Counted from the stretch's first letter, positions 4,249 through 63,569 are shown. The stretch is 64,000 nt of DNA from Nitrosopumilus sp. (GCA_965205675.1 OZ242186.1:1632001-1696000); one strand, 5' to 3'. The notes: generated by a model not told the origin, from the letters alone. Numbers and translations: made by a program.

Positions 4249-4277
4249 AAGATATTGATTTTCAATTAAAAATTAGT

Positions 4278-7143: not shown

Positions 7144-7217
7144 GGGTCTATGGCGCAGCCAGGTAGCGCACCGGACTTTTAATCCGGTTGTCAAGGGTCC
7201 GAATCCCTTTAGACCCG
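7144..7217 (+). tRNA. tRNA-Lys(TTT)
   Basis: Cloverleaf: GGGTCTA/TAGACCC acceptor stem, CCGGA-CTTTTAA-TCCGG anticodon arm. Confidence 0.95.
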
Positions 7218-7269
7218 CTCTCTTTTAGTGATAAAAATAAACTCAGCTGTATCTAATTACATGGATACC

Positions 7270-40042: not shown

Positions 40043-40054
40043 TTCATCATTCTC

Positions 40055-42133: not shown

Positions 42134-42136
42134 AAT

Positions 42137-44488: not shown

Positions 44489-44978
44489 GTGTCGCACCTC
44501 TATCTGATATTTGGATTTCACTATCTTGTGCAACGTATGGTTTAACCTGAAGCTGAGCAGGAGTGTAAATCAAACCTTCTTTAGAAAATGAAGATAATTC
44601 ATAATCATTTGTCATGTAAAGAGCATAGAAAGGACATGCATCAACACAAAGACCACAAAAAACACATTTTCCATAATCGATTTGTGGCATTATTGATTTT
44701 TTATTTTGTTTTTGTTCTTCTGGAACTTTAACCATAGCAATTGCTTCAGCAACTCCCTCACATGCAATTGAACATAATTGGCAACCAGTACAATGATCAT
44801 GAAATAGCATGTGCCGTCCCTTTAATCCAGCAATTCCAACACCTGTAGATGGATCAAATTGATAACCATCCCCAACAAACTTTAGTTTTTCTTCAGGATA
44901 GCGAAGAGTAAATCTCTTTGTGGCAATATGTTTAATTCCAGAATTTAATGCACGAATAATGCCAGTTGCAGTTCCCAT
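44481..44978 (-). CDS. nuoI: NADH-quinone oxidoreductase subunit I
   Basis: Two CxxCxxCxxxC 4Fe-4S motifs. Confidence 0.95.
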   Translation of the reverse strand: MGTATGIIRALNSGIKHIATKRFTLRYPEEKLKFVGDGYQFDPSTGVGIAGLKGRHMLFHDHCTGCQLCSIACEGVAEAIAMVKVPEEQKQNKKSIMPQIDYGKCVFCGLCVDACPFYALYMTNDYELSSFSKEGLIYTPAQLQVKPYVAQDSEIQISDRGATHG

Positions 44979-47413: not shown

Positions 47414-47519
47414 CTCTATCTACCTTTTATTGTAAAGTCCTTTCTAAGTGGTGGCAAGTCTGCAGTCATCTCTATCTACCTTTTATTGCAAAGTCCTTTC
47501 TAAGTGGTGGCAAGTCTGC
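47404..47519. repeat. 56-bp tandem duplication of the nuoC/nuoD junction
   Basis: 47404-47459 and 47460-47515 differ at one base; both are bounded by CTGC microhomology. Confidence 0.95.
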
Positions 47520-48068
47520 CCAATCTTCTGGCAAAAGTAATCGTCTATTATCAGGGTGACCTTCAAAGAAAACTCCAAACATTTCAAAAACTTCTCTCTC
47601 ATGAAATTCGACACTGTAAAAAACATCTCTAAGAGTTGGAAGCTTTGTTGCATCATTTCCAGGGATTGGATTTGTTTCTCGTTGAGCTCTAGTAGCTAAA
47701 ACCAGAATCTGTCTTGCCAATGAAGATTCAGTATAAGATCCTATATGATAAACAACTTCAATTTCATTATCTTGAGGATAATCCACACCTGAAACAGATT
47801 CTACATGATCATAATTTAGTCCATCACGAATGAATTCGGCAACATCATGAACATTTTCTCGTCCAACATTAATTCTAACGCGGTCTTCTTTTACAAATCC
47901 AACTTTAACTTTATCACCAAATTTTTCAATAATCTTATCAGAAATACTTTTTTCAAAAACAGGTAATTCAACTGGTGTCGGTTCCGGTTTCTTTGCTGCA
48001 GGTTTGGGCGGAGGCGTTTCAACTTTAGGTGAGACATCTGCAGAAGAATTTTCAGTTTTAGTACTCAT
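47472..48068 (-). CDS. nuoC: NADH-quinone oxidoreductase subunit C
   Basis: EREVFEMFG..F.GHP, PLRKDF. Confidence 0.95.
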   Translation of the reverse strand: MSTKTENSSADVSPKVETPPPKPAAKKPEPTPVELPVFEKSISDKIIEKFGDKVKVGFVKEDRVRINVGRENVHDVAEFIRDGLNYDHVESVSGVDYPQDNEIEVVYHIGSYTESSLARQILVLATRAQRETNPIPGNDATKLPTLRDVFYSVEFHEREVFEMFGVFFEGHPDNRRLLLPEDWADLPPLRKDFAIKGR

Positions 48069-48592
48069 TATACAAACTTCCTAGCCTTCATCCTCTTAAT
48101 TTTTTCTTGCAATAACATACATCCTTGGATGAGAGTTTCAGGTCTAGGTGGACAACCTGGAACATAGACATCAACTGGAATTACTCCATCAATTCCTGGA
48201 AGTACATTGTATGAATCAAAATACAAACCTCCAGTAATTGCACAAGCACCCATAGCAATTACATACTTTGGTTCTGGCATTTGATCATAAACTAATCTGA
48301 GACGTGGTGCCATTTTTCTTGTAATAGTTCCTTGAACAACTACAAGATCACATTGTCTTAATGATCCAAATGCTTCAATGATGCCAAATCTTTCAACATC
48401 ATATCTAGGACTTGATGCTGCCCCAAATTCTACACTGCAACAAGCTGTTTCAATGTGAACAGGCCAGAGTGACCAAATTCTACCCCAGTTAATGGCATAG
48501 CCTAATGGTTTATCAATTGCTTTTTCTAAAATATCTCCTAACTTTCCTACAAAGACATTTGCATTTTCTGGTGTGACTAAATCTTTAAGCAA
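48068..48592 (-). CDS. nuoB: NADH-quinone oxidoreductase subunit B
   Basis: ACCSVE, MGACA, VPGCPPRPE. Confidence 0.95.
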   Translation of the reverse strand: MLKDLVTPENANVFVGKLGDILEKAIDKPLGYAINWGRIWSLWPVHIETACCSVEFGAASSPRYDVERFGIIEAFGSLRQCDLVVVQGTITRKMAPRLRLVYDQMPEPKYVIAMGACAITGGLYFDSYNVLPGIDGVIPVDVYVPGCPPRPETLIQGCMLLQEKIKRMKARKFV

Positions 48593-48632
48593 TTTTATCC
48601 CCTATCCCCGTAAATGTGATTTATATAAAAAA

Positions 48633-49007
48633 CTACCATATCCTTCTTTTCCCTGATTGATACAATGCAAAAGCCATTGCACCAAACATTATTGCTAAAA
48701 ATCCCATCATTGGCAAAGTTGCCATCTTTGGAATTTCTAAAAGTGCACTACCCCACGCATACAAGAAAATTGCCATTACATCAAAAACAACAAACATGAG
48801 AATGTATGGATAATACTGCATCATGAAATGAGTTCTTCCCTCACCTGTTGGAACTTGACCACATTCCATCGGCAAGAACTTTACAGGATTACTTCTTTTT
48901 CGAGGAGAAACCATTCTTGAAATAAAAAGAGCTGGAGCCATCGCTATTATACCAAACGCAAACATCAATACAACGGTACTGTAATTGCCCGCTAATTCCC
49001 CGACCAA
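48633..49007 (-). CDS. nuoA: NADH-quinone oxidoreductase subunit A
   Basis: ECG, FVVFDV; three TM helices. Confidence 0.93.
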   Translation of the reverse strand: MVGELAGNYSTVVLMFAFGIIAMAPALFISRMVSPRKRSNPVKFLPMECGQVPTGEGRTHFMMQYYPYILMFVVFDVMAIFLYAWGSALLEIPKMATLPMMGFLAIMFGAMAFALYQSGKRRIW

Positions 49008-49088: not shown

Positions 49089-50039
49089 ATGTCTACCTTT
49101 CTTTCAAAAACCAAAAATCGAGTCAGTTTTGAGGAGAGAATACAGACAAAAGCAGTCAATACTCAAAAAACATCCCAGTCAGCAATAAGAAACTTTGAGA
49201 GATTTTGCAAGGAAAACTATGGCAAATCAATGGAGGAGACAATATCAGAATATCAGAGAGTTGAGATGGAACTAGTCTATGAATCTCTTCAAGAGTGGAT
49301 AAACTGGAACCATACAAAGATCCACTCAAACAGCATTCCCACACTGTTTTCATACCTCAAAACATATCTGAGATATCACAAGATAAGAATTACAAAGGAA
49401 GATGTGGCAGAACAGTTGAGTTTTCCTCACAAGGTCAGAGAGGAGAAACATCCATTGACAAAAGAAGAGATAAGAAAGATAATTCTAGTCAGCAACAAAA
49501 ATAACATGATCAAGTTTTTGGCACAGTTGTCAAGCGGTATGAGAAGGGGGGAATTGCTCCAATTGCGTAAAAAAGACCTTGATACTACTCAAAAGAGAAT
49601 CATGGTAAAGATTCCTGCAAGCATCACAAAGACAAAAAAGTCAAGGGTGACTTTTTTTAGCAAGGAGGTAAGGCCTTTGCTTATGCCAATTCTGAGAAAA
49701 CTATCTGATGAGGATGACAGGGTGTTTTTTCGTGGAAAGGCAAATCCTGCAAATATAAGCAATCACTACCAGTTGATTCTCACAAAGTATCTAAAAAAAG
49801 CAGGACTGGATCAAAAATATGAATCAGGACTGCACAAGATAACAACACACAGTTTTAGGGCATATTTTATCACAAAGGTATCGCGACACGATCCAAACTT
49901 GGCAAAATACTTTGCAGGACAAGAACAGGCAAGGGATTTGTTGATGTATGACAGATTGACAACAGATGAAAGGTTGGAAAATTATATCAAATTTGAGCCT
50001 GATTTGCTAATATATGACAACAATAGACGACAGAATTAG
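49089..50039 (+). CDS. Tyrosine recombinase/integrase
   Basis: SGMRRGEL (R), TKTKKSR (K), HSFR, C-terminal Y. Confidence 0.9.
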   Translation: MSTFLSKTKNRVSFEERIQTKAVNTQKTSQSAIRNFERFCKENYGKSMEETISEYQRVEMELVYESLQEWINWNHTKIHSNSIPTLFSYLKTYLRYHKIRITKEDVAEQLSFPHKVREEKHPLTKEEIRKIILVSNKNNMIKFLAQLSSGMRRGELLQLRKKDLDTTQKRIMVKIPASITKTKKSRVTFFSKEVRPLLMPILRKLSDEDDRVFFRGKANPANISNHYQLILTKYLKKAGLDQKYESGLHKITTHSFRAYFITKVSRHDPNLAKYFAGQEQARDLLMYDRLTTDERLENYIKFEPDLLIYDNNRRQN

Positions 50040-50162: not shown

Positions 50163-51552
50163 GTAACTGTCTAGAGTTTTGAAGTAAAATCTCCAAGATA
50201 TTCTAAAGAATAATCATGAAAGTTTAATCCTCGTAATCTGCATGTCTCCTTTATACTCATCAGTATCTTATGAGAATCAGCACCATGAATGGTTCTATGA
50301 CCGTTTGTAATTTTACGAATTATCACATTTGGTCTGATTGCCCTCTCTGCTGTGTTATTGTGTGAATCAGTTCCAGTAATTAGGAATGTAAAAAGCATTT
50401 TTCTCTCACGTTTCAATCTTTTTACAAACCTGATACAGTTTTTCTCTGTGTATTTTTTTGATATGATGTGATTAATTCTCCTTTCAAGATTCTTTTTTGC
50501 ATGGATTCTTTCTGATTCTGATTTTATTTTTGCCACACCATGAGAGTCATAAATTATTTTCTTGAGATTCTTGGCAAATGGTGCAAATTCTGGTCCGGGA
50601 TTCTTGTGATTAATGGTATCATTAACCTCTCTGAGATAATGGATGTGACATTTCTGGTGAGTGCTTCCAACATGGTTCCATGCAGGGTACGAATCACTTG
50701 TAATGTTGCCATCATATCCCTTGAGAATTCTCTTGGGAACATCCATTGAACGTGATTTGTCAATCTCGTAAATTACAGTCCATTTACTCACAAATGCCCA
50801 CAACCAGTGGTTCTGGCCATCTACCCTCCAACTTGTCTCATCACCATGTATGTTTAGATCTTCTTTTAACTCCACAATCATTGTATCATATCTGCTCCCA
50901 AATGCTTTTGATACTATTGATACTGCATGATTAATTGCAGATTCTGTAATGTGCAGTGAGAAGAGCATCTGCAAAAGATGAGATATTTTACCATACGATA
51001 ATCCGATAGTTTTTAGTGATGTGATTAGCACCATGAGCCTAATTCCAAACCTTTCATTTGACAGTACAGTGTGAATGTTACCCGAGATTTGTTTTTTGCA
51101 GTTTGTGCAGTATCGTCTAACTATCGTATATTTTGTCACAACTGCTTTTGCAGGAATGATGTCTTCTACTATTCTGGTGTATGAATCAGTTGGTTCTGAG
51201 AGTGATTTGCCACATGTGTTGCACTCTTTTTGGTCAACTGTAATGGCATCATCAATGTGTGCCCGTCTGCTTCTGCTTTTTCTAGGATGTCTTGATGTTT
51301 TCTTCTTTTTTGCAGTTTCAGTCTTGTTTGGTTTTGCTTTGATATTTCTTGCAACAAGTGTAGACACTGTTTGTTTTAGTTCTGCAATTTCTCTGTGTAA
51401 CTGACGGTTTTCTTGCTCCAACGAGTGACATCTGTTGCGATAATATTCCAGCTCATCATATACTGACAATTGTATATTGTAATTTGTCACTGATCAGAAA
51501 AGATATAGATAAAAAATATTAAAGAAAGTACTTCAAAACTCTAGACAGTTAC
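50163..51552 (-). mobile_element. IS66-family (single-ORF, ISBst12-like) element
   Basis: Perfect 24-bp TIR GTAACTGTCTAGAGTTTTGAAGTA; no 8-bp target duplication seen. Confidence 0.92.
50171..51490 (-). CDS. IS66 transposase
   Basis: Coiled coil, CxxC...CxxC zinc finger, DETSW, SDSY, QKCHIHYLRE, NNTAERAIR. Confidence 0.93.
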   Translation of the reverse strand: MTNYNIQLSVYDELEYYRNRCHSLEQENRQLHREIAELKQTVSTLVARNIKAKPNKTETAKKKKTSRHPRKSRSRRAHIDDAITVDQKECNTCGKSLSEPTDSYTRIVEDIIPAKAVVTKYTIVRRYCTNCKKQISGNIHTVLSNERFGIRLMVLITSLKTIGLSYGKISHLLQMLFSLHITESAINHAVSIVSKAFGSRYDTMIVELKEDLNIHGDETSWRVDGQNHWLWAFVSKWTVIYEIDKSRSMDVPKRILKGYDGNITSDSYPAWNHVGSTHQKCHIHYLREVNDTINHKNPGPEFAPFAKNLKKIIYDSHGVAKIKSESERIHAKKNLERRINHIISKKYTEKNCIRFVKRLKRERKMLFTFLITGTDSHNNTAERAIRPNVIIRKITNGHRTIHGADSHKILMSIKETCRLRGLNFHDYSLEYLGDFTSKL

Positions 51553-51767: not shown

Positions 51768-52451
51768 TCAAGACTGTTTTATATCATCTACGTTATAATC
51801 CAGTCTATTTATCATGTTTACAGTAAGATCAAGATTGTTCATCAGTGCTTGGTCTTTGTCTGGATGAAGATTCTTTTTTATCTCATTTATACCTGATTCT
51901 ACCAGTACGCTTGCCATGTCGCGATAGTATCTTTTGTGGGAATCTCTGTATCTTGTATCTGCAATATCATCTGCATTACTGTAGGTTTTATGTCCTCCAA
52001 TATTTTGAGACGTGATACCCTGAGGATGGAATGTAAAGATAGCATCAAGCAAATGTTTTATTGTATCTGGACTAAATATGTCAGAGGCAAGCTCCCTTTG
52101 AAGAGCTTTGAAATATTGCAAAACATACTCTTCTCCCACCAGATTAAAACTCAGAGTAGATTTTATTATTTCAGGACTTAGGTTTGAATAGATTTCCCTG
52201 ATGTATTTTTTGTCCTTGTGGTTGGAGGTTCCGGTAATTTTATCAGGTGTTGTATTGGAGATTTTAATCATATCAGATAACAGGACAAATCCCTGCATAG
52301 AATTTGTTATTCTTGATATAATGTCATTTTTTGCCTTGGAGAGCCTCTTTGTCTCAGTCTTTGAGCGGTTCCCAACTCCAAATTCTTGATTGTAGTGGCC
52401 CTTTAGAAAGTCAAGTATCTTTCTTTCAAACTGGGTAATTTCATCAGGCAT
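51768..52451 (-). CDS. Hypothetical protein (island cargo)
   Basis: 227 aa ORF; no family recognised. Confidence 0.6.
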   Translation of the reverse strand: MPDEITQFERKILDFLKGHYNQEFGVGNRSKTETKRLSKAKNDIISRITNSMQGFVLLSDMIKISNTTPDKITGTSNHKDKKYIREIYSNLSPEIIKSTLSFNLVGEEYVLQYFKALQRELASDIFSPDTIKHLLDAIFTFHPQGITSQNIGGHKTYSNADDIADTRYRDSHKRYYRDMASVLVESGINEIKKNLHPDKDQALMNNLDLTVNMINRLDYNVDDIKQS

Positions 52452-52508: not shown

Positions 52509-52658
52509 TTATGCTTTTACACATATCTTTCCAGTCAGTAATTTTTGCATCAGACCTTTCTTTAGAATTTCTAGCTTTTTCTTGTATTCCTGGTTTTTCT
52601 GAATGTATGCATCAACTCCAGACAGGATTGACGCAATTTGCTTTTGTTCTTTAATCAT
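52509..52658 (-). pseudogene. hsdS: Orphan C-terminal conserved tail of a second HsdS type
   Basis: MIKEQKQIASILSGVDAYIQKNQEYKKKLEILKKGLMQKLLTGKICVKA*, a classic HsdS C-terminal helix. Confidence 0.8.
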
Positions 52659-53460
52659 TGATACACAGTTAATATTGAATGATTTAGGTAAAAATAGAAA
52701 TTATGACTCTGGAAGCATGGATATGAAAGAGAACCTTCCAAAAGGATGGGTAAAAACAAAGATAGAATTGATTTGTGATCTCATAGGTGGTGGCACTCCT
52801 TCAAGGAAAAATTTAGAATATTTTAAAGACGGTCAAATAATTTGGTTAACACCAACTGAAATCAATAAAGAGAAAATATTAAAAATTAATTCTTCTAAAG
52901 AAAATATTACAGAATTAGGATTAACAAAAAGTTCCGCTAAATTAATACCTAGAAATGCAGTTTTATTAACATCTAGAGCTAGTATAGGATATGTTGCAAT
53001 AGCAGAAACAACAGTTACAACAAATCAAGGGATTTGCTTCATTCATATGCTCTAAAATTATCCATAATTATTTTTTAGCTTATTGGTTAAAGAGTAATAA
53101 AAATGTCTTAGAAGAAAATGCAACAGGAACAACATTTAAGGAAATTCCCAAATCTGTGATCAAAAAACTATCTATTGAAATTCCACCATTTTCTGAACAA
53201 AGAAGAATCGTCTCAAAAATTGAATCAATCTTCACACAGATTGATGCAGCAAAGGTGCAGCTTGAAAAACTTGCATTACAAACAAAGTCTACATCGGGAA
53301 GTTTATCTGCACTAAAGAGCAGTGTGCTAAAACAAGCCTTTGAAGGTAAGCTTGTTCCACAGGATCCCGATGATGAACCAGCAGAAATCTTGTTGAAGAA
53401 AATTCATGGCGATTCAAAAGAATTAGTCTTTGAGAAAGAGAATCTTCCAAAGGGATGGAT
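52607..53460. repeat. Left arm of the ~853-bp inverted repeat (partner 58758-59610)
   Basis: Near-identical reverse complement covering the upstream region, TRD1 and the central conserved region of hsdS. Confidence 0.95.
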
Positions 53461-54064
53461 TCATGTTAGAATTAAAGATGTAGTTAATGATTCAAAACAA
53501 GATATTGTAGATGGTCCTTTTGGTTCTAATCTTAAATCATCTGAATATGTAAATAATGGTATTCCTTTAATCAGATTACAAAATATTGAACGAAATTATT
53601 TCATTAATAAAAATACAAAATATATTACAAAAGAAAAAGCTGAACAGTTGAAAAGACATAATTTTATTCAAAACGATATTGTAATAACAAAATTGGGTTT
53701 TCCTGTAGGAAAAGCATGTATTGTACCTCACATCCTAAAAACAGGAATAATTGTTGCAGATATTATAAGAATTAGAATGGATGAAGAATTTGTGTTAAGA
53801 AAATTTCTCATACATATAATAAATTCTGAAATAATCATAAAACAATTTAATGAACATACTAAAGGAACAACAAGACCAAGAGTAAATTTGACCAAATTTC
53901 GTAATTTTCAAATTCTCCTTCCACCACTCTCCGAACAAAAACGCATCGTCTCTAAAATTGAATCAATCTTTGATAGGATTGATGCAAGTATAGTATCTAT
54001 GAGAGATAAAATAATTTATAAAACATATCATTCATTTTCTCAAATTTATGGACATAATATTTGA
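52675..54064 (+). pseudogene. hsdS: Silent hsdS copy: TRD-a (+1 A frameshift near 53028) plus TRD-b, lacking the C-terminal tail
   Basis: CAAGGGATTT here vs CAGGGATTT in the other copy; HsdS homology ends exactly at ...DRIDA (53986). Confidence 0.88.
53932..53987. repeat. Left arm of a perfect 56-bp inverted repeat (partner 58285-58340)
   Basis: CGAACAAAAACGCATCGTCTCTAAAATTGAATCAATCTTTGATAGGATTGATGCAA. Confidence 0.95.
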
Positions 54065-54179
54065 TTTATATTATATTTTTCATTAAATCATCTAAAATAT
54101 TTTTAGGATGTCACAAATATGTTGTATTAATAATGATTTATTTTATAACCATCATAAATCTAAAAATTAGGAGTATAAA

Positions 54180-56546
54180 TTGAGCAACGAAAAGATTTCA
54201 GAATCAACTACTTGTATGCGTTTTATTGATCCAAAATTGAAAGATACTGGATGGGAATTAGATAAAATCGTTCGTGAATATTATATTAATAAAGGAAAAA
54301 TCATTCCAGAGGGTCGTACAGGAAAACGGAATGATCCAAATAAAGCAGATTATATTTTAAAACTAGGACTTGATTTTAAAATTGCAGTGATCGAAGCAAA
54401 GGCATGGGATAAACCTCATGATGAAGGAATGCAACAAGCTTTGATATATGCAGAAAAACTAAACCTACAATTTGCATATGCAACTAATGGACAAAAAATT
54501 GAAGAATATGATGTTACAACAAAACAACAAAGAACAATTGATAAATTCCCAACACCCGAAGAGTTACAAAAAAGATATAACGGACATAAGAATTTTGATG
54601 AAAAACAAATGAATGTTCTGTTGGAACCATTAGATAGAAGCTCAAAAGATCCTGGTGGGTCACCTATGGAACCAAGATATTATCAAGAAATTGCAATCAA
54701 TGCAGCATTAACATCAATCTTTGCAGGAAAGAAACGAATTTTGTTGAATCTTGCAACAGGAACAGGCAAGACCTTCATTGCTTATCAAATTGCACAAAAA
54801 TTATGGAATAAAGATAAACCACATCCAAAAATCTTATTTTTAGCAGATAGAACTATTTTATTGGATCAAGCAAGAAATAATGCATTTGCAAATTTTGGTG
54901 AAGCAAGACATAAAATCCAAAGAGTTGTACAAACTGCATTTGGAATGTATTTTGCATTATATCAAGCACTTGATGTAGAAAAAGAAAACGGTGAATTATA
55001 CAAACAATATCCAACAGATTTTTTTGATTATGTTATAATAGATGAATGTCATCGTGGAAGCTCAAATGAATCTGGGAATTGGAGGAAGATACTGGATCAT
55101 TTTTCTAATGCAATCCACATAGGTATGACTGCAACACCTAAACGAAATGATGAAAGCAAAGATACCTATGATTATTTTGGCACACCTGTATACACGTACA
55201 GCCTTAAACAAGGAATTGAGGATGGCTTTTTAGCACCATACATGATTCATAGAGTAAATCTTGAAATTGATATACAAGGATACAAACCAAAACCAGGTGA
55301 AAAAGATCTTGATGGAAAAATATTGGAAGATAGATTGTATACATACAAAGATTTTGACAGAATTTTAAGAGTAAATGAAAGACGAAAAGCAGTTGCAATG
55401 CATCTGGTAAACTTTTTAGAAAAAAATAATCAAAAATATAATAAAACAATTCTATTTTGCCAGAATTCTGAACATGCACTTGAAATGACTAAATTGATCA
55501 GAAATTATTCTGGAGAAAAACATGATTATTGTGTTAGAATAGTCTCTGCTGAAGGAGAAATAGGTCGTGAACATTTAGATCATTTTCAAGAACCTAATAG
55601 AGATTTTCCAGTTGTTGCAGTAACATCTAGATTGATGTCTACTGGTGTAGATGTACCTACATGTAAAATAATTGCATTAGACAAAAGCATTAACTCTATG
55701 ACCGAATTTAAACAGATAATAGGACGTGGCACACGTGTGTATGAACCGAAGGACAAGATGTGGTTTTCTATTATAGATTATAGGAAAACAACTCGATTAT
55801 TTGAAGATGTAGAATGGGATGGTCCACCTGCTGCTGAAACAGATGAAGATCGAGGAAGAATTACCAGAGAAAAAGAAGACAGGATGAAGGAAAAAGTAAA
55901 AAAGAGAATAGAAGAAGAAAGAAGGAAGATAGAAGAAGGAATATCATCTACATCCAGAGATCCAACAAATATTGAAACTTATCATATTGAAGGACATGAA
56001 GTTAAGATTATAGGTGAATCTGTATTGATATTTGATCAATCAATAGATGGTAACAGATTAATTACTTATCAGAATTATACAAAAGAGACTGTACGTCGTT
56101 TGATTAATGATGATCAAACAGAACTATACAAACTTTGGACGAATCCTGAAAATCGAAAACATTTTGTCGAAAAATTAAAAACTAGAGGAATAAATTTTGA
56201 ACATCTAAGAGAAATTACACAGATGTTTAAAGCAGATGCATTTGATTTGTTACTTCATTTTGCATTTAATGCAGATGCAAAAACTCGTTTAGAAAGAGTA
56301 AATTCTGTGCGTAAAAAACCTTTTTTGGAGAAATATCCAGATAAGGCACGAGAAGTTCTTGAGATAATTTTAGATCATTATGCTGATCATGGATATCAAG
56401 AATTAGAAGAAAGAGATATTTTGAAATTGCCACAATTCAAACAGTTTGGAGGTCCAGTAGAAATTATTAATGATAGATTCAAAGATGGTGATCAATATGA
56501 TGATGCCATAGTACAATTAACAAAAGAATTGTACTTGAATAATTGA
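54180..56546 (+). CDS. hsdR: Type I restriction endonuclease subunit R (EcoAI/EcoEI-like)
   Basis: ADY...IEAK nuclease motif; LATGTGKT, DECHR, MTATP, QIIGRGTR helicase motifs. Confidence 0.95.
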   Translation: MSNEKISESTTCMRFIDPKLKDTGWELDKIVREYYINKGKIIPEGRTGKRNDPNKADYILKLGLDFKIAVIEAKAWDKPHDEGMQQALIYAEKLNLQFAYATNGQKIEEYDVTTKQQRTIDKFPTPEELQKRYNGHKNFDEKQMNVLLEPLDRSSKDPGGSPMEPRYYQEIAINAALTSIFAGKKRILLNLATGTGKTFIAYQIAQKLWNKDKPHPKILFLADRTILLDQARNNAFANFGEARHKIQRVVQTAFGMYFALYQALDVEKENGELYKQYPTDFFDYVIIDECHRGSSNESGNWRKILDHFSNAIHIGMTATPKRNDESKDTYDYFGTPVYTYSLKQGIEDGFLAPYMIHRVNLEIDIQGYKPKPGEKDLDGKILEDRLYTYKDFDRILRVNERRKAVAMHLVNFLEKNNQKYNKTILFCQNSEHALEMTKLIRNYSGEKHDYCVRIVSAEGEIGREHLDHFQEPNRDFPVVAVTSRLMSTGVDVPTCKIIALDKSINSMTEFKQIIGRGTRVYEPKDKMWFSIIDYRKTTRLFEDVEWDGPPAAETDEDRGRITREKEDRMKEKVKKRIEEERRKIEEGISSTSRDPTNIETYHIEGHEVKIIGESVLIFDQSIDGNRLITYQNYTKETVRRLINDDQTELYKLWTNPENRKHFVEKLKTRGINFEHLREITQMFKADAFDLLLHFAFNADAKTRLERVNSVRKKPFLEKYPDKAREVLEIILDHYADHGYQELEERDILKLPQFKQFGGPVEIINDRFKDGDQYDDAIVQLTKELYLNN

Positions 56547-56580
56547 ATCATATTTAATGAGGATATAGGAAATATCACTA

Positions 56581-58059
56581 ATGGATGCACAATCACTTCG
56601 TTCTATAATAAAATCTGCAAGAGATCTAATGAGAAAAGATGCAGGTCTTAATACGGATGTCGATAGAATCCCTCAAATTGCATGGATTTTATTTTTAAAG
56701 AGTTTTGATGATTTTGAAAAAGAAAGAACAGCATTGAATAAAAAATATGTCGAGGCAATTCCCAAAGGATTACGATGGAGAGATTGGGCTGAAGATAAAA
56801 GTAAATCTTTGACAGGTCCGGATCTAATTTCTTTTGTCAATAATGAATTATTTCCTAAACTTGCAAAATTGGTAGGAGGAGAGGGTTTTGAACAAAGAGA
56901 TGTACTTGCATCAATCTTTAAAGAATTAAACAACAGGATATTAAGTGGATATGTTCTTAGACAAATTCTAAATCTGATAGACAAAGTAAATTTTGTAAAT
57001 ACTGATGATATTCACACAATGGCAAAACTCTATGAAGATATGTTAGTAGAAATGAGAGATGCTGCTGGTTCTAATGGCGAATTTTATACACCAAGACCTG
57101 TGATTAGATTTATTGTCAATCAAATTAACCCAAGTCTCAAAAAATCTGAAAAAATATTGGATCCTGCATGTGGCACAGGAGGATTTTTGATAGAATCTCT
57201 AGAATTTCTAAGAAATGAACAAAAGACAAAACATGACTTGAAAAAATTAACAACCAAGACATTATTTGGAATTGAGAAAAAACCAATGCCATATCTATTG
57301 GGGATGATGAATTCATTATTACATGAACTTGACAAACCAAACATTATCAGAACTAATACACTAGCTAAACCATTAAGAGAAATATCTGTAAACAATCAAT
57401 ATGATATCATCATCACAAATCCTCCATTTGGTGGAGAAGAAGAAGAAGGAATATCATCTAATTTACCTGTTGGTTTTCAAACATCAGACACTGCACTTGC
57501 ATTTTTGTTGTATATCATGTATTCATTAAAAGATGGAGGGCGTTGTGGGATTATTCTTCCAGATGGTCCAATGTTTGCAGGAGGAATGGCTGCCAAGATC
57601 AAGAAAAAATTAATTGAAGAATTTAACTTGCATACAATAATTAGACTTCCTAGAACCGTTTTCGAACCATATACAACAATTGCCACAAATATTTTATTTT
57701 TTGATAAAACCACTCCTACCAAAGAAATATGGTATTATCAGATGCATGTAAATGAGCGATTAAGAGGAGTTACCCGTGCAAAAAATCCAAAATATACTAA
57801 ATCAAATCCAATTGCATATGAGGATTTTTCAGAGATTGAAAAATGGTTTAAAAATAAAAAGACAAATAAAAATGCATGGAAAGTAAATATCAAAGATATT
57901 CAAGATTATAATCTTGATTCCAATAACCCAAAAGATGTGACAGAAACAATTGTACTGCCACCAGATGAATTGATAGATTCATTCATCAGTATAAGAAAAG
58001 ATATGATCAAAGCGTTTGAGGATGTAAAGAATATCATATCTAAAGAAATTCCAAAATAA
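56581..58059 (+). CDS. hsdM: Type I N6-adenine DNA methyltransferase subunit M
   Basis: GEFYTPR, DPACGTGGF and NPPF motifs. Confidence 0.95.
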   Translation: MDAQSLRSIIKSARDLMRKDAGLNTDVDRIPQIAWILFLKSFDDFEKERTALNKKYVEAIPKGLRWRDWAEDKSKSLTGPDLISFVNNELFPKLAKLVGGEGFEQRDVLASIFKELNNRILSGYVLRQILNLIDKVNFVNTDDIHTMAKLYEDMLVEMRDAAGSNGEFYTPRPVIRFIVNQINPSLKKSEKILDPACGTGGFLIESLEFLRNEQKTKHDLKKLTTKTLFGIEKKPMPYLLGMMNSLLHELDKPNIIRTNTLAKPLREISVNNQYDIIITNPPFGGEEEEGISSNLPVGFQTSDTALAFLLYIMYSLKDGGRCGIILPDGPMFAGGMAAKIKKKLIEEFNLHTIIRLPRTVFEPYTTIATNILFFDKTTPTKEIWYYQMHVNERLRGVTRAKNPKYTKSNPIAYEDFSEIEKWFKNKKTNKNAWKVNIKDIQDYNLDSNNPKDVTETIVLPPDELIDSFISIRKDMIKAFEDVKNIISKEIPK

Positions 58060-58105
58060 TTATTTATTCAAAAATTACCATCAATTATTTCAGTAGTAAT
58101 TATAT

Positions 58106-59542
58106 TTATGATCTACATTTTTGAGATTTTATTTTTTCTAATAGAATTGATGCGGGTTCATCATTTGGATCTTGTGGAACTAATTTTCCCTCAAAAGCTT
58201 GCTTCAAAATACTACTTTTTATAGCATTTATACTATCGGGTATATTTTTTAATTTAGATTCTAAAATTGTAATCTCTTGTTGTTTTGCATCAATCCTATC
58301 AAAGATTGATTCAATTTTAGAGACGATGCGTTTTTGTTCGTTTAGCGGTGGGAGAGGAATTAAAAATTCAGATATTTTTTTAAAATTAATACGAGGATGT
58401 TGCACTCCAGTCATATTTGCATTTGCATATGTAACAAAATTATTAGTACGTAAAAATAACGATATGAACATATTTGAAAAATTAGTTATATTTTGGAAGA
58501 CCAAAATATCTGTAGAGCATACACCATCAAAGATAGGAATACATACTTTGTTAAGATAAGGACGCAATCTACCATACAAAATATCACCTGATTTGAATAT
58601 TGTTTTTGTACTAGTGAGTTCTTTCGAATCACCTCTGCCAATAATTTTTCCTGTGTTACTTTCAACATGTTCTAATCCAAGAAATATTCTATTTGTATTG
58701 CTAGTTGGATCAAATCTTTCCTTAGAAGGTTCGATCATATGTCCAATTTTTGTTCTGATCCATCCTTTTGGAAGATTATCTTTCTTAAATTTTAATTCCT
58801 TTGAATCGCCATGAATTTTCTTCAACAAGATTTCTGCTGGTTCATCATCGGGATCCTGTGGAACAAGCTTACCTTCAAAGGCTTGTTTTAGCACACTGCT
58901 CTTTAATGCAGATAAACTTCCCGATGTAGACTTTGTTTGTAATGCAAGTTTTTCAAGCTGCACCTTTGCTGCATCAATCTGTGTGAAGATTGATTCAATT
59001 TTTGAGACGATTCTTCTTTGTTCAGAAAATGGTGGAATTTCAATAGATAGTTTTTTGATCACAGATTTGGGAATTTCCTTAAATGTTGTTCCTGTTGCAT
59101 TTTCTTCTAAGACATTTTTATTACTCTTTAACCAATAAGCTAAAAAATAATTATGGATAATTTTAGAGCATATGAATGAAGCAAATCCCTGATTTGTTGT
59201 AACTGTTGTTTCTGCTATTGCAACATATCCTATACTAGCTCTAGATGTTAATAAAACTGCATTTCTAGGTATTAATTTAGCGGAACTTTTTGTTAATCCT
59301 AATTCTGTAATATTTTCTTTAGAAGAATTAATTTTTAATATTTTCTCTTTATTGATTTCAGTTGGTGTTAACCAAATTATTTGACCGTCTTTAAAATATT
59401 CTAAATTTTTCCTTGAAGGAGTGCCACCACCTATGAGATCACAAATCAATTCTATCTTTGTTTTTACCCATCCTTTTGGAAGGTTCTCTTTCATATCCAT
59501 GCTTCCAGAGTCATAATTTCTATTTTTACCTAAATTATTCAA
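58106..59542 (-). CDS. hsdS: Type I specificity subunit S, complete copy (TRD-a + TRD-c + tail)
   Basis: Two LPKGW...PP..EQ.RIV repeats and two KQAFEGKLVPQDP helices. Confidence 0.95.
   Translation of the reverse strand: MNNLGKNRNYDSGSMDMKENLPKGWVKTKIELICDLIGGGTPSRKNLEYFKDGQIIWLTPTEINKEKILKINSSKENITELGLTKSSAKLIPRNAVLLTSRASIGYVAIAETTVTTNQGFASFICSKIIHNYFLAYWLKSNKNVLEENATGTTFKEIPKSVIKKLSIEIPPFSEQRRIVSKIESIFTQIDAAKVQLEKLALQTKSTSGSLSALKSSVLKQAFEGKLVPQDPDDEPAEILLKKIHGDSKELKFKKDNLPKGWIRTKIGHMIEPSKERFDPTSNTNRIFLGLEHVESNTGKIIGRGDSKELTSTKTIFKSGDILYGRLRPYLNKVCIPIFDGVCSTDILVFQNITNFSNMFISLFLRTNNFVTYANANMTGVQHPRINFKKISEFLIPLPPLNEQKRIVSKIESIFDRIDAKQQEITILESKLKNIPDSINAIKSSILKQAFEGKLVPQDPNDEPASILLEKIKSQKCRS
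58285..58340. repeat. Right arm of the 56-bp inverted repeat
   Basis: Exact reverse complement of 53932-53987. Confidence 0.95.
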
Positions 59543-59610
59543 TATTAACTGTGTATCAATGATTAAAGAACAAAAGCAAATTGAATCAATCCTGTCTGGA
59601 GTTGACGCAT
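58758..59610. repeat. Right arm of the ~853-bp inverted repeat
   Basis: Reverse complement of 52607-53460; identity stops at GTTGACGCAT. Confidence 0.95.
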
Positions 59611-59649
59611 CACATTATGCACAATTCATAGTCATTACAAGTTTACGTA

Positions 59650-59688
59650 TGAGAGTAACAATACTTTTAATACTTTTTACAAGAGTTT
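59650..59688 (+). promoter_or_regulatory. 39-bp direct repeat, copy 1 (probable promoter/operator)
   Basis: TGAGAGTAACAATACTTTTAATACTTTTTACAAGAGTTT is identical to 60291-60329 and contains TATA-like TTTAATA. Confidence 0.6.
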
Positions 59689-59797
59689 AGGAAAGTTGTA
59701 CATGAATTGGAAATCTAATTCGTAAGGTAGACACAAATTATTTCTCTTTATTTCATATTGTCAGATTTTTATACCAAATACACACAATAAGAAATAC

Positions 59798-60010
59798 ATG
59801 AAATTTAGAATATTCATAAAACAGGATGATGATGGAATATTTGTCTCAGAAGTTCCAGAACTTCCTGGATGTATATCTCAAGGAGATACGAGAGAAGATG
59901 CAGTAATTAACATCAAAGATGCAATTTCAGGGTACATCACAAGTCTAAAAAAACATGATGAACCAATACCTTTCTCAATTGATGAAGAGACTGTAGAGAT
60001 ACATGTCTAA
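59798..60010 (+). CDS. hicB: HicB-family antitoxin
   Basis: VPELPGCISQGDTREDA motif. Confidence 0.9.
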   Translation: MKFRIFIKQDDDGIFVSEVPELPGCISQGDTREDAVINIKDAISGYITSLKKHDEPIPFSIDEETVEIHV

Positions 60011-60227
60011 ACTACCCATTACTTCTGCAAGAGATTTACTCAAGATATTACATAAAATTGGGTATGATGTTGACCATCAAACAGGAAGTCACATAATATT
60101 GAGAAACAAAGATTATCCTCACAGAAGAATAACTGTTCCAAATCATAAAGAAATAGCAAGAGGTACATTACGTTCCATAATAAAACAGTCAGGATTAACT
60201 CTGGAAGAATTTTTGAAAATGTCCTAA
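60003..60227 (+). CDS. hicA: HicA-family mRNA interferase toxin
   Basis: QTGSH...TVPNH..IARGTLRSIIKQ. Confidence 0.9.
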   Translation: MSKLPITSARDLLKILHKIGYDVDHQTGSHIILRNKDYPHRRITVPNHKEIARGTLRSIIKQSGLTLEEFLKMS

Positions 60228-60290
60228 GTTGATTTTTTCTTGATATGTGATTTTTCTTATTTGATTTTCTCCAATAGGATCGATGCTGGC

Positions 60291-60329
60291 TGAGAGTAAC
60301 AATACTTTTAATACTTTTTACAAGAGTTT
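60291..60329 (+). promoter_or_regulatory. 39-bp direct repeat, copy 2 (probable promoter of a leaderless hicB2)
   Basis: TTTAATA lies about 25 nt upstream of ATG 60336. Confidence 0.65.
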
Positions 60330-60335
60330 TACATC

Positions 60336-60551
60336 ATGAGTTTTACAGTACAAAAAAAGACATACACTGTAATCATAACACCTGATGAAATTGACGGTGG
60401 TTTTGTTGGTAGATGTGATGAATTACATGCTTATTCGCAGGGTGAAACATATGGGGAGATCATGGAGAATATGAAAGAAGCAATAGAAGTATCAATAGAG
60501 GATGGGAACATGCATGAATTTAACATGCTCATTGTTCAAAGCCACAAATGA
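60336..60551 (+). CDS. hicB: HicB-family antitoxin
   Basis: GGFVGRCDELHAYSQGET...NMKEAI. Confidence 0.85.
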   Translation: MSFTVQKKTYTVIITPDEIDGGFVGRCDELHAYSQGETYGEIMENMKEAIEVSIEDGNMHEFNMLIVQSHK

Positions 60552-60766
60552 CAAGGATTCTCAAGATTTCAGGTAATGCAATGATAAGATATTGTACCAA
60601 AAAGAGATTCACCATACTTAGACAGAGAGGGAGTCACGTAAGGCTAAGAAAAGAGAGTATGTTTGTAACTGTTCTAGCTGGAAACAACACACTAAAAACT
60701 GGAACACTTTTGGGATTGTTAGAAGAGATTAACATTAATAGAGATGAGTTCATCCAAATGAAATGA
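60548..60766 (+). CDS. hicA: HicA-family toxin
   Basis: RQRGSHV...LKTGTL. Confidence 0.82.
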   Translation: MTRILKISGNAMIRYCTKKRFTILRQRGSHVRLRKESMFVTVLAGNNTLKTGTLLGLLEEININRDEFIQMK

Positions 60767-60903
60767 AAATAGACTTGTAAAATAATACAATCTAAAAATT
60801 ATGATTATTACATTTTAGAATTTCAATATGAAAATAAAATAATCCACATTCATAAACACATGTACAGAAATAGCAACATTGTAAAAAGATCACATACTTG
60901 GTA

Positions 60904-61836
60904 ATGACAATAACAAAACAACGAAGCATGGTATTATTTGAAGAGTCAATAAAATCACAATATACTAAAAAGAATTACACATCACACATGAATCAATTTA
61001 TGAAATTTCTAAATATCAATAATATGAATCAGTTACTGTTAATTCCAAAGCCAAACTTGCAGAATTCATTAGAAGATTACCTGATAGAATTAAAACAAAA
61101 CATGAATCCAAATACAATACCATCAAAATTTCAAGGAATAAAGCATTTTTGTGTCATGAATCAAATCGATTTGAACTGGAACATAATACATAAAATGTTT
61201 CCACAAAAACAAAAACCTCAAAATTTAAGATCCTACACCACGCAAGAAGTTGGAGAAATATTATCCAATACAACAAGTCTTAGAAACAAGGCTTTGATTC
61301 ATTTTTTGGCATCAACTGGAGCCAGAATAGGAGTATTTGATCATAAATTATCAATGAATCATATTAAAAAAATGCCTCATGGCTGTAATGCAGTAAAACT
61401 CTATGCAGGGCATGTAGAGGAATATTGGAGTTTTCTTACCCCTCAGGCCTCAAAGGCATTGAATGCTTATCACCAATATCGCAAACAATGCGGTGAAATA
61501 TTTTCTGAAAATGCTCCAGTCTTTGCTACAATGAAAACAGACTGTGGGCAACTTGGATGGAGTGGGGCAAGATCAACGATATACAGAATACTCTCAAAGA
61601 GCGACGTCAAGAGAAACAAGATTGAATATAGATATGATGTGCAGACAGACCACGGATTTAGAAAGAGATTCAACACCATACTCAAGATTAACAATTCTGT
61701 AAACTATAACATTGCAGAAAAGCTGATGGGTCACAAGAACGGCCTTGATGGAGTATATCTGACACCCACTCTAGATGAACTGTTTGTAGAATTTAAAAAA
61801 ATTATAAAGAAACTGGAGACAAGTCCAGAGAAATAA
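60904..61836 (+). CDS. Tyrosine recombinase/integrase
   Basis: STGARIG (R), HGFRKRF, LMGH and GVY catalytic residues. Confidence 0.92.
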   Translation: MTITKQRSMVLFEESIKSQYTKKNYTSHMNQFMKFLNINNMNQLLLIPKPNLQNSLEDYLIELKQNMNPNTIPSKFQGIKHFCVMNQIDLNWNIIHKMFPQKQKPQNLRSYTTQEVGEILSNTTSLRNKALIHFLASTGARIGVFDHKLSMNHIKKMPHGCNAVKLYAGHVEEYWSFLTPQASKALNAYHQYRKQCGEIFSENAPVFATMKTDCGQLGWSGARSTIYRILSKSDVKRNKIEYRYDVQTDHGFRKRFNTILKINNSVNYNIAEKLMGHKNGLDGVYLTPTLDELFVEFKKIIKKLETSPEK

Positions 61837-62471: not shown

Positions 62472-63569
62472 TACTTCCTAACATAAGTTCGTCAACCATC
62501 CTCTCGTTGCATATACTTGAGAATGTCTAAATTGAATCGTCTGGTTCTGTAATATTTGGAGATGTTATTTTTCAGATTACTTAGAGATGGTTGATACTGT
62601 GACACCAACAAATTGTATTTTCCTTGCTTCCATACTTCCTCAACTGCATTGAACTGTGGTGAGCCTTTTGGAAACCAATTCAATAGAACATCATCTGCAT
62701 TCTCATCAAGATATTTTTGTACTAGTTTTGATCTGTGTTGTGGTGCTCGGTCTACATAGACTAGAATCTTGCCAAACTTTCTGTGCAATTCCTTTAGATA
62801 ATCCAAAAAACAGTACTGATCAAATTTTTCATATTGTCTGAATAATTGCCTGCCGTCATGAGTCAGTGCACCAAAAATGATTGTTTTTTGATGTGACCCG
62901 TTTACTAGAATAATTGGACGGGTTCCTTTCTTTACCCACATCTTTTTTCTAAATATCGCATCAGCAGTAAAGATGGACTCATCTTGTGCAAGAACTGTAA
63001 AGCCTTTTGCTATTTTTGAGGCTATTTGTTCTTTGGAGTTTTTTTAAACCAGAGTTTTTCCTCAACACTAGCTGAATTTACAAATCTCTTTGCTGCAACC
63101 TTTGGAACAAATCCCCATTTGTGTAATAATCTGTACACATGAACCTCATGATATTTTACACCTGATTTTTGATAAATCAGATTCATCACTTGCTTTGCAC
63201 TCCAGCCGGATTGTTTTTCTGCAATTTGTAGTTGAATGCTGACTAGTTTCTTTTTTGGTATACTAGTTGGTCTGCCAGTTCTAGGCAAGTCTTGCAGTCC
63301 TGCAATTCCATATTCTGCAAATCTATCTAACCATTTGTATGCCCATGAACGTACACGTCCAAGATTCTTTGCAACATGTGATGCAATTTGGTTCTCAAGT
63401 AATACTCGCTTTATCAAAAATAGCCTTTCTTTTACCTTGACGTTCTTTTCATCTTTGTATGCTTGAATTAATTTTTGATTATTCATGGTTTGATGTGTAA
63501 TGTTTTGATCAATATGGCATTTGGTAAAATAAATCAGATCAACAGATCATAAAATTTTGTTAGAGAGTA
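62472..63569 (-). mobile_element. IS630-family insertion sequence
   Basis: Imperfect TIRs TACTTCCTAACATAAGTT / revcomp TACTCTCTAACAAAATTT; flanking TA duplication. Confidence 0.88.
62492..63486 (-). CDS. IS630 transposase in two frames, probably joined by a -1 frameshift
   Basis: DLPRTGRP HTH; QDES, DRAPQH, NAVEEVW; slippery TTTAAAAAAAC near 63038-63048. Confidence 0.85.

Follow-up and report, generated by a model that had tools for sequence, protein, structure and literature searches.

Can the two hsdS genes of a type I restriction–modification locus in Nitrosopumilus sp. exchange their parts by DNA inversion, and thereby switch the specificity of the enzyme? The question is raised by a stretch of 64 kb (hereafter the window), in which hsdR and hsdM are bracketed by two hsdS genes that face each other.

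Anatomy of the hsd locus

The genes of the locus are arranged as follows.

52717..54064, + strand: left hsdS body, start codon about 52717
54180..56546, + strand: hsdR, EcoAI/type IB family (NF046051, ResIII, EcoEI_R_C)
56581..58059, + strand: hsdM (N6_Mtase, HsdM_N)
58106..59500, − strand: right hsdS, complete, with recognition domain (TRD) a, central region, TRD c (58341-58757) and tail
58106..58284, − strand: sole C-terminal tail (distal conserved helix of HsdS), now joined to TRD c

By its profile matches, the locus is a type I (EcoAI-like) restriction–modification system. HsdR reaches 901.8 bits against NF046051 (EcoAI/FtnUII family; cut-off 550), and HsdM matches N6_Mtase (PF02384) at 2e-64 and HsdM_N (PF12161) at 2.1e-8; its score against TIGR00497 is 85, below the cut-off of 242.75. 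The right hsdS gene, for which the ATG at 59500 is the likely start and whose mechanical ORF runs to a TTG at 59542, encodes 464 residues that comprise two Methylase_S stretches and the tail, i.e. the type I arrangement of two recognition domains and two conserved helices. Residues 6-462 align to EcoKI HsdS (2y7c_A), and the best match of HsdS among solved structures is M. jannaschii HsdS (1yf2_A, 1.1e-52). The left gene consists of TRD a*, the central region, TRD b (53461-53931), the inner site, 25 unrelated codons and a stop, and it lacks the C-terminal conserved helix. A frameshift at 53027/53028 in TRD a* cuts it into two ORFs (52603-53055 and 53156-54064), both of which match Methylase_S in profile searches.

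Two pairs of inverted repeats connect the hsdS genes.

52607..53460, + strand: long inverted repeat, left arm, with upstream region, start codon, TRD a* and central conserved region
58758..59610, − strand: long inverted repeat, right arm, with a CCR-type core at 58971-58996 and a relic core at 59583-59608
53932..53987, + strand: inner inverted repeat, left, perfect over 56 nt, with an inner-type core at 53960-53985
58285..58340, − strand: inner inverted repeat, right, perfect over 56 nt, with an inner-type core at 58287-58312

The outer arms are about 99% identical; they differ by 12 mismatches and by one indel of 1 nt, the left copy having an additional A at 53027/53028. Only 6 of the mismatches, along with the indel, lie in the part up to 53425. 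An 854-nt repeat of this identity is far beyond chance. The initial annotation had proposed an hsdS–hsdR–hsdM–inverted hsdS layout with a single tail, an outer inverted repeat of about 853 bp, and a perfect inner repeat of 56 bp ending where the silent copy loses HsdS homology. ORFs and profile matches bear out the layout, the repeats measure 854/853 nt and 56 nt, and left/right similarity collapses 2 nt past the inner repeat, where the C-terminal helix of the left copy is lost.

Paired core sites and linked recombinases

Every repeat contains a dyad-symmetric core, GAATCAATC-N8-GATTGATGC, which occurs in two spacer classes.

53222..53247, + strand: central (CCR-type) core, left, GAATCAATC TTCACACA GATTGATGC
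53960..53985, + strand: inner-type core, left, GAATCAATC TTTGATAG GATTGATGC
52609..52634, − strand: relic core, degenerate, spacer CTGTCTGG, at the outer end of the left arm and inverted relative to the gene

The relic, which has its mirror copy at 59583-59608, resembles GCATCAATY-CTGTCAGG-AGTTGATGC, the core of hsdS pairs in other genera. In the whole 2.01-Mb genome the 26-nt core pattern is confined to hsdS, with four exact sites and a single relic; its reversed form, used as a control, has 0 occurrences. An arm-spacer-arm form is typical of tyrosine-recombinase sites (lox, FRT, dif), and the cores share with heterospecific lox/FRT-type sites a pair of inverted putative binding arms separated by a spacer of 8 nt. 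In contrast to those sites, the putative sites of the window lie within protein-coding DNA: both classes are found inside the conserved SKIESIFxxIDA motif, 3′ of each recognition domain. Part of the conservation of the cores is therefore due to coding constraint.

Two genes for tyrosine recombinases are located near the locus.

60898..61836, + strand: tyrosine recombinase 2 (PF00589), candidate invertase
49089..50039, + strand: tyrosine recombinase 1 (PF00589, 60.2 bits; weak match to XerA-like NF040815)

Recombinase 2 scores 29.9 bits against PF00589 (cut-off 27.1), and its catalytic residues, which were identified by eye according to the usual order of the motifs, namely R (STGAR), HxxR (HGFRKR), H (GHK) and Y, are conserved in 10/10 aligned homologues. 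In the window its gene lies 1.3 kb from hsdS and outside the putative invertible segment. Recombinase 1, which directly follows the nuo operon (38558-49007), is probably an island integrase; a homologue is present beside the locus in L018 (75% at the amino acid level), in L130 in two fragments and in L017 in three.

Predicted isomers of the locus

We are moderately confident that the locus is an invertible, site-specific hsdS switch in which recombinase 2 acts at the paired cores. What makes this likely is the combination of the dyad cores, the linked tyrosine recombinase, the single tail in all nine loci compared below and the purifying selection on a tail-less recognition domain. Two facing hsdS bodies, both of which have an upstream region of their own and a pair of recognition domains, share one tail, which is carried, along with hsdR and hsdM, by the segment between them. 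According to this model, recombinase 2 would act on matching core pairs, and the differing spacers, TTCACACA in the central and TTTGATAG in the inner class, would prevent recombination between the two classes. Inversion at the inner pair would flip hsdR, hsdM and the tail, so that the tail passes from TRD c to TRD b, whereas inversion at the central pair would exchange TRD b and TRD c. Four isomers are predicted. Besides a+c, the present form, these are a+b, which requires both inversions, and two OFF forms, in which the frameshift of the left TRD a would leave no complete HsdS intact. The isomers that the initial annotation had derived from inner and central inversion are thus correct, given this anatomy. 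Some cells of a clone would methylate and restrict two bipartite targets that share one half-site, and other cells would be without a complete specificity subunit. Inversion probably occurs at present and at a useful frequency, and we infer that the locus may switch the methylome, have an antiviral effect and function as a phasevarion.

Programmed inversion versus rare shuffling

The most serious competing explanation, albeit in our view an unlikely one, is that hsdS genes are shuffled only rarely in the course of evolution, that the left copy is a decaying duplicate, and that no programmed switching takes place within a clone, the recombinases being island-borne. The frameshift in the left TRD a speaks for it, as does L018, where an IS is inserted between the left hsdS and hsdR and one copy is truncated at its 5′ end; frameshift and IS could be signs of decay. 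Likewise, no contig contains an alternative junction: among the Logan contigs of four runs, the sole joint between opposite strands is that of the reference, and none of these contigs bridges either repeat. Type I systems and XerC/D-type integrases are described as cargo of thaumarchaeal integrated elements (PMC6563490), and the wider recombinase family is common without type I systems (89/201 family genomes, versus 12/201 for type I hsdM). A search for recombinase 2 homologues yielded 1107 sequences. In favour of the switch, the closest homologues in other genera have inverted hsdS genes alongside in three of the five genomes tested, and these hsdS pairs carry inverted repeats at the same motif as in the window. 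Two of the closest homologues tested (G189 and G080) have no hsdS nearby; the clade is therefore not exclusive to hsdS loci, and recombinase 2 could be an island integrase.

These points have to be weighed against the conservation of the design. We scanned 401 family genomes for at least two reverse plus two forward cores and found the pattern in seven, all of genus g1 and G000 included; together with L017 and L018, these loci form the mapped set (n = 9). In all nine, a pair of inverted hsdS bodies comes with paired cores and an intact tyrosine recombinase, and exactly one inner core leads into a full tail. This one-tail, two-body, paired-core design, which argues against mere shuffling, has been kept although the loci are only 70-88% identical to one another (the window/L018 segment excepted) and serve two enzyme sets: six loci carry a different type I set, 25-30% identical to HsdR and HsdM of the window. 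The conserved regions of the window's HsdS are 57-77% identical to the HsdS of that other Nitrosopumilus set, but just 27-42% identical to the HsdS of canonical relatives of the window's hsdM. At this level of divergence, there is no pair of near-identical genomes among the mapped loci that differ by a simple flip. The recombinase genes, the core sites and the recognition of a family-wide rather than one-off design go beyond the initial annotation.

The tail-less copies, too, argue against a decaying duplicate. Except in the window, they are open two-domain reading frames (8/9 loci; seen as ORFs in some and by tblastn in the rest). TRD b, which belongs to the tail-less copy in L131 as it does in the window, has a dN/dS of 0.15 at a dS of 0.71, a simple Nei-Gojobori estimate for one pair, similar to the 0.12 of hsdR. 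By this measure, the recognition domain of a tail-less copy is under purifying selection.

Further evidence came from L018, which, like L017 and several G genomes, is metagenome-assembled, so that the assembler may have oriented repeat-bounded segments arbitrarily. As assembled, L018 has no complete hsdS, since the left copy is without the tail and the right one without its 5′ half; a complete gene would therefore exist only after inversion. TRD a is near-identical in the window and L018 (dS 0.03), yet one of them has it at position 1, the other at position 2. Moreover, the hsdR-hsdM-tail segment is 99.3% identical between the two, despite nuo genes that are 89% identical (84-89% for the window against the genomes of the two closest loci). 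The different position of TRD a and the high identity of the segment suggest that recombination took place recently, at the cores or close to them.

Site-specific versus homologous recombination

Inversion could also proceed by homologous recombination (RadA) across the 854-nt and 56-nt repeats, with recombinase 2 acting as an island integrase only, but we regard this route as very unlikely. The arms in the window are certainly long and similar enough for homologous recombination, and three loci (L018, L127 and L131) have perfect blocks, 108-273 nt long, that run past the central core. However, in five of the nine loci left/right identity stops 0-1 nt beyond the central core, with perfect runs of 35-56 nt, and the shared block at this site, which ends at the core edge, spans just 43-60 nt. 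At the inner core, identity stops 2-10 nt beyond in 9/9 loci and gives way to at least six unrelated sequences. Identity blocks that end exactly at cores are likewise at odds with shuffling alone. In view of these sharp common endpoints, site-specific recombination fits better than gene conversion or protein constraint. Central-core spacers are the same on the left and right in all nine genomes, though five variants exist between genomes; inner-core spacers agree in six, the remaining three differing solely at the outermost spacer base. Recombinase 2 accompanies the hsdS pair in 9/9 loci, and in three of them it is encoded inside the segment, between the two inner cores. Its constant presence and the arm-spacer-arm shape of the cores, a likeness to known tyrosine-recombinase sites, also disfavour the RadA route.

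Although repeats this long assemble poorly, an assembly artefact, i.e. a collapsed or duplicated repeat in a genome with one hsdS, can practically be dismissed, as the two arms are distinguished by 12 mismatches and an indel and lie in different flanking sequence, and eight other genomes show the double-hsdS layout. Low-depth Logan contigs from two runs match TRD b and TRD c, each at 100% identity; these runs may stem from the source sample and thus lend no independent support. One contig joins a repeat arm to TRD b, another joins TRD c to an arm. Both hsdS copies are therefore real, which contradicts the assembly duplication that had been considered at the outset.

A possible dock for cassette exchange

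Returning to the site-specific switch, one may extend it to a broader role, which we deem quite unlikely at present: the module may be a family-wide platform of the Nitrosopumilaceae that combines specificity flipping with a dock for cassette exchange between species. In this role, the site-specific reaction that flips the segment would also exchange whole segments, bounded by inverted inner cores, from one species to another. The contents observed in such segments are an EcoAI-type hsdR-hsdM pair, the second type I enzyme set, and a recombinase with HicAB. Exchange of this kind would explain why hsdR, hsdM and the tail are so much more similar between the window and L018 than the nuo genes, why this high identity stops at the inner cores, and how one HsdS family can serve two such divergent enzyme sets.

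Relation to known hsdS inversion systems

Inversion of hsdS is well known in bacteria; what is new here is a probable switch in an ammonia-oxidising archaeal group, with a single tail end shared by two genes. In Mycoplasma pulmonis, according to Dybvig et al. in 1998, inverted hsdS genes reportedly flank hsdR and hsdM, with recombination sites inside hsdS; the hsd recombinase is HvsR. Six invertase clades are known: PsrA, TvrR, BfiA, EfiA, MfiA and HvsR. The initial annotation had already named this likeness, inverted hsdS genes on either side of the enzyme genes. In contrast to M. pulmonis, the recombinase gene is linked to the locus in all nine Nitrosopumilus cases, and we know of no single shared tail in M. 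pulmonis.

The SpnIII (ivr/cod) locus of Streptococcus pneumoniae inverts hsdS with the tyrosine recombinase PsrA/CreX (PMC7672463, PMC4948785). As described there, it shares with the window a type I system in which one hsdS is expressed and partial copies are inverted, several classes of inverted repeats inside hsdS, a locus-encoded tyrosine recombinase and inversions, in the window predicted ones, that produce alternative HsdS proteins (PMC7672463). It differs in that its silent copy misses the 5′ end, whereas that of the window misses the 3′ tail; furthermore, in the window hsdR and hsdM ride on the putative invertible segment, the recombinase gene lies outside, and the host is archaeal.

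At least two hsdS genes, an inverted-repeat pair and an invertase homologue with the locus are among the features by which Huang et al. 2020 recognise hsdS invertons, and the window has these three. Their survey of 'epigenetic invertons' gives 4 (REBASE) and 11 (NCBI) Euryarchaeota loci (PMC7672463, tables 1-2); archaeal candidates are therefore already in print. Tables 1-2 of that survey contain no Thaumarchaeota/Nitrososphaerota locus, though its supplementary tables may hold more (PMC7672463), and we found no predicted hsdS inverton for Thaumarchaeota in the published literature. According to the survey, 91.9% of the species are host-associated (PMC7672463), whereas the window belongs to a free-living marine nitrifier lineage.

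Neighbouring genes

Three further features adjoin the locus.

50163..51552, − strand: IS66-family insertion sequence between recombinase 1 and the hsd locus
51768..52451, − strand: orfX, conserved neighbour gene
59798..60766, + strand: HicB/HicA pair (59798-60227) and a second small pair (60336-60766)

The insertion sequence, which is missing from this place in L018, has terminal inverted repeats of 43 nt (50163-50205 and 51510-51552, 81%) and a transposase ORF (50171-51490) that matches DDE_Tnp_IS66 and zf-IS66. Searches of Pfam and NCBIfam profiles gave no match for orfX, a 64%-identical homologue of which adjoins recombinase 2 in L018 and L130. The second gene of the second small pair is HicA-like, and each pair is preceded by a copy of a perfect 39-nt direct repeat (59650 and 60291). 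HicAB adjoins recombinase 2 also in L127, L129, L131, L132 and L134.

Two facing hsdS genes share one tail

The hsd locus of the window is made up of two hsdS genes that face each other across hsdR and hsdM:

52603-53055 and 53156-54064, + strand: left hsdS (target-recognition domains, TRDs, a* and b; no tail), two ORFs split by a 1-nt insertion, from ORF reading
54180-56546, + strand: hsdR, EcoAI-family model (901.8 bits, cut-off 550)
56581-58059, + strand: hsdM, following hsdR in the gene order
58106-59542, - strand: right hsdS (TRDs a and c, with tail), complete, likely ATG at 59500, from ORF reading

Re-reading of the ORFs and repeats confirmed the description in the initial annotation, i.e. 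facing hsdS genes with inverted repeats of about 853 bp and 56 bp. The long repeat (52607-53460 versus 58758-59610) contains 12 mismatches and a single indel, an extra A in the left copy at 53027/53028, and the inner repeat (53932-53987 versus 58285-58340) is perfect over its 56 nt. Past the inner repeat, the left copy ends with a stop after 25 unrelated codons; in the right copy the tail follows. The closest solved structure to the complete HsdS is the M. jannaschii S subunit (1yf2_A, 1.1e-52). Since residues 6-462 align with EcoKI HsdS, the last ~60 residues correspond to the distal conserved helix, here called the tail. The annotation had read this layout as a phase-variable switch. Its anatomical part (repeats, single tail) stands, and the mechanism can be called probable: judged from sequence, the locus is probably an invertible specificity switch that operates by site-specific recombination. 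The frameshift at 53027/53028 may be real or an assembly error; if real, it would render two of the four predicted isomers non-functional.

Two classes of core sites lie within the hsdS genes

Every TRD is followed by the motif SKIESIFxxIDA, inside which we found the dyad GAATCAATC-N8-GATTGATGC. Two classes of this core are present in the window in two copies each, the central core with the spacer TTCACACA and the inner core with the spacer TTTGATAG. Both arms of the long repeat have a degenerate core at their outer end:

52609-52634 and 59583-59608: degenerate core, spacer CTGTCTGG, inverted relative to the genes

A role of the upstream degenerate core as an ON/OFF switch for the promoter and TRD a was considered and set aside, because its spacer is unlike both classes and its arms are degenerate.

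When the whole genome was scanned with up to 2 mismatches, the core pattern matched only the hsdS sites and a relic, and a control pattern gave 0 matches. With up to 1 mismatch, 20 of 401 genomes of the family have at least one match. In 7 of the 401, all of them from the genus of the window, two forward cores occur together with at least two reverse ones. The pattern was also detected in 12 viral contigs, once in each, none of which encodes relatives of HsdS, HsdM, HsdR or recombinase 2, the tyrosine recombinase that is the candidate invertase.

Double-hsdS loci recur in related genomes

From the core scan we retrieved the loci of six of the 7 genomes together with three single-hsdS loci, and nine double-hsdS loci were mapped (the window and the comparison loci L018, L017 and L127-L132). 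In each of the nine, two hsdS bodies stand in inverted orientation, a full tail comes behind exactly one inner core, and recombinase 2 is encoded inside the retrieved stretch; the inner cores flank its gene in L127, L128 and L131, and in six loci it is found outside the segment that they bound. The layout of the window recurs in L018 (HsdM 99% identical) and L017 (86%), where hsdR and hsdM are likewise set between a tail-less hsdS and a facing copy that has the tail, and recombinase 2 is nearby. The remaining six of the nine loci have a second type I enzyme set, HsdM'/HsdR', which is 25-30% identical to that of the window. Segment content varies: the inner cores enclose hsdR, hsdM and tail in the clade of the window, and elsewhere recombinase, HicAB and tail, or hsdM' and tail, or tail, hsdM' and hsdR'. 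In L130, where the segment comprises hsdM' and tail, a complete hsdS followed by hsdM' is present at the moment; a flip would place hsdR', the other hsdS and hsdM' in one co-directional set. A TATA-binding-protein paralogue is found by the hsd loci of L017 (3620-4159; within the segment, with the left hsdS on one side and hsdR on the other), L132 (4397-4936) and L128 (about 17665-18122).

Relatives of the window's hsdM itself are infrequent. At E<=1e-30 they were found in 12 of 201 sampled family genomes, the genome of the window included, and the single close relative among these (79% identity) is on a 2-kb contig. Distant relatives (62-79% identity) show the canonical gene order. Of 43 metagenome loci found, 21 were mapped (L060-L077, L082, L098 and L101); an S-like match on the hsdM strand is present in 11 and absent from 10. 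No inverted hsdS pair was seen in these 21, many of which are contigs of only 1.6-7 kb.

Sequence signatures favour recombination at fixed sites

The spacers of the left and right central cores are identical in 9/9 genomes, although five variants exist among the genomes. Left and right inner-core spacers agree in 6/9; in the other three the sole difference is at the first or last base of the spacer, which leaves the central six bases matching in all nine. As the dyad is embedded in a coding motif, core conservation must owe part to coding constraint. In five genomes (L017, L128, L129, L130 and L132) the central regions are otherwise unrelated and differ in helix type, yet the block of left/right identity (43-60 nt, with perfect runs of 35-56 nt) ends 0-1 nt past the central core. 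At the inner site identity ends 2-10 nt past the core in 9/9 genomes, after which at least six unrelated sequences follow. Such sharp common endpoints at the dyad fit fixed-site recombination better than gene conversion or protein constraint. No near-identical pair differing by a single flip was found among the genomes compared, several of which are metagenome-assembled, where the orientation of repeat-bounded segments may be arbitrary.

Selection on the tail-less copy is in keeping with a domain in use. TRD b, which lies in the tail-less copy of both the window and L131, has a dN/dS of 0.15 (dS 0.71, 162 codons), compared with 0.12 for hsdR (window versus L017) and 0.15 for TRD c. This is not what would be expected of a domain that never enters a working protein.

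The enclosed segment has apparently been exchanged

Comparison with L018 revealed that the stretch from hsdR through hsdM to the tail (window 54018-58339, L018 4438-8759; right inner repeat included) is 99.3% identical. Outside this segment identity amounts to 89% for the nuo genes, 71-76% (DNA) for the recombinase genes and 69-76% for the flanking island genes. TRD a is likewise nearly unchanged (dS 0.03), but adjoins the upstream region in the window and the tail in L018. The near-identical segment and the shifted TRD a together point to recent exchange with repositioning at or near the cores. The contrast in identity between the hsdR-hsdM-tail segment and the rest indicates that this segment was exchanged horizontally, and recently, in exactly the extent bounded by the inner repeats.

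The enzyme genes may also have been replaced. The two enzyme sets are served by a single HsdS family. The conserved regions of the window's HsdS are 57-77% identical to HsdS proteins of the other enzyme set (L127-L132), as against 27-42% to those of the canonical relatives of its own hsdM (L060-L101), which suggests that enzyme genes were swapped under a pre-existing hsdS pair.

L018 as assembled contains no complete hsdS. Its left gene has the upstream region and one TRD in two copies and lacks the tail; its right gene has the tail and lacks the first half of the first TRD as well as a start. Inversion at either site class would restore a complete gene. Between the left hsdS and hsdR, L018 has an insertion sequence with a DDE_Tnp_1 transposase (3467-4437), whose 9-nt target duplication corresponds to window positions 54018-54026.

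We also inspected Logan contigs of public sequencing runs over 53440-59800, in which the short word size causes breaks at exact repeats of 56 nt or longer; no contig shows the window's segment flipped. Runs X1 and X3 are dominated by an L018-like organism, with the strain of the window as a minor component (depth about 15). Three features of these contigs have no bearing on inversion. An 'opposite strands' joint at 53440/58779 proved to be the left arm as it stands in the reference. The loose ends at 54018/54026 correspond to the ends of the insertion sequence, with its 9-nt target duplication, in the dominant L018-like strain. A joint at 58359/59458 with double depth is best explained by TRD p, which that strain has in duplicate. 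The uncovered parts of runs X4 and X5 are uninformative.

Recombinase 2 is often, but not exclusively, linked to facing hsdS genes

The catalytic residues R, HxxR, H and Y are kept in 10/10 aligned homologues of recombinase 2. A protein homologue search gave 1107 matches, and at E<=1e-10 the wider family is present in 89/201 genomes, a tally that takes in three genomes flagged unpublished (G077, G092 and G093). So wide a spread is expected for the integrases of integrated elements in thaumarchaea, elements known to have type I systems as cargo (PMC6563490). Neighbourhoods were compared for the five homologues closest to recombinase 2 among the complete genomes in the 201-genome sample. In three of them (G100, G037 and G001, each from another genus) the homologue lies beside or between inverted Methylase_S genes, and in G189 and G080 such adjoining genes are absent (2/5). 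Facing hsdS genes thus accompany this recombinase clade broadly but not exclusively. The three linked loci have inverted repeats of 41-57 nt at the same coding motif, with the core GCATCAATY-CTGTCAGG-AGTTGATGC. The degenerate cores at both extremities of the window's long repeat resemble this working-type core and may be left over from an older arrangement.

Relation to known inversion systems

As a kind, hsdS inversion switches that include a tyrosine recombinase are well known. Huang et al. (2020) predicted 827 and 1140 hsdS invertons, of which 4 and 11 are from Euryarchaeota; their main tables list none from Thaumarchaeota, and 91.9% of their species are host-associated (PMC7672463). The word 'archaea' is absent from the main text of Atack et al. 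(2020) (PMC7394358), and Milman et al. (2023) describe a scan of bacteria only, with archaea excluded (PMC9881135). Chanin et al., who call archaeal invertons minimally investigated, list 42 archaeal long-read sets, 36 euryarchaeal and 6 crenarchaeal, none thaumarchaeal (PMC10028968). Term searches found inversion in neither of two archaeal R-M surveys (PMC11033074, PMC10609329), and we found no report of specificity switching in the literature on Thaumarchaeota hsdS or Nitrosopumilus restriction-modification. What is new is that the design is conserved across Nitrosopumilaceae, that a single tail shared by both genes rides on the putative invertible segment, that two core classes are defined, and that the segment content is exchangeable.

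How ammonia-oxidising archaea, some of the most abundant microbes in the sea, withstand viruses is poorly understood. If the locus is switchable, clonal populations would have mixed methylation patterns and mixed resistance, which would matter for the interplay of viruses and hosts in the nitrogen cycle and for efforts to do genetics in this group. Archaea have barely been studied for programmed inversions, and the 26-nt cores with a small linked recombinase offer a directly testable candidate for an archaeal site-specific recombination system.

The locus resides in an island with mobile elements

The genome is a single contig of 2.01 Mb. The island carrying the hsd locus starts directly past the nuo operon and also contains a conserved gene of unknown function and two HicB/HicA-like pairs:

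49089-50039: tyrosine recombinase 1, probable island integrase
50163-51552: IS66-family element, 43-nt terminal inverted repeats
60898-61836: tyrosine recombinase 2
62492-63486: split IS630-like transposase (DDE_3 and HTH ORFs)

The IS66-family and IS630-like elements identify the island as a mobile-DNA hotspot. The sole further trace of hsdS in the genome is a 56-codon relic ~140 nt from a tRNA-Lys gene, which may be what an earlier integrated element with hsdS left behind:

7144-7218: tRNA-Lys gene
7333-7503, - strand: hsdS conserved-region relic, 56 codons, KIPPHSEQKIIVTETESIFGRIYA
7358-7383: degenerate core inside the relic

Two small gene pairs, one HicB/HicA and the other containing a HicA-like gene, are each preceded by a copy of a perfect 39-nt direct repeat (59650-59688 and 60291-60329), which has the look of a promoter or operator region that was duplicated.
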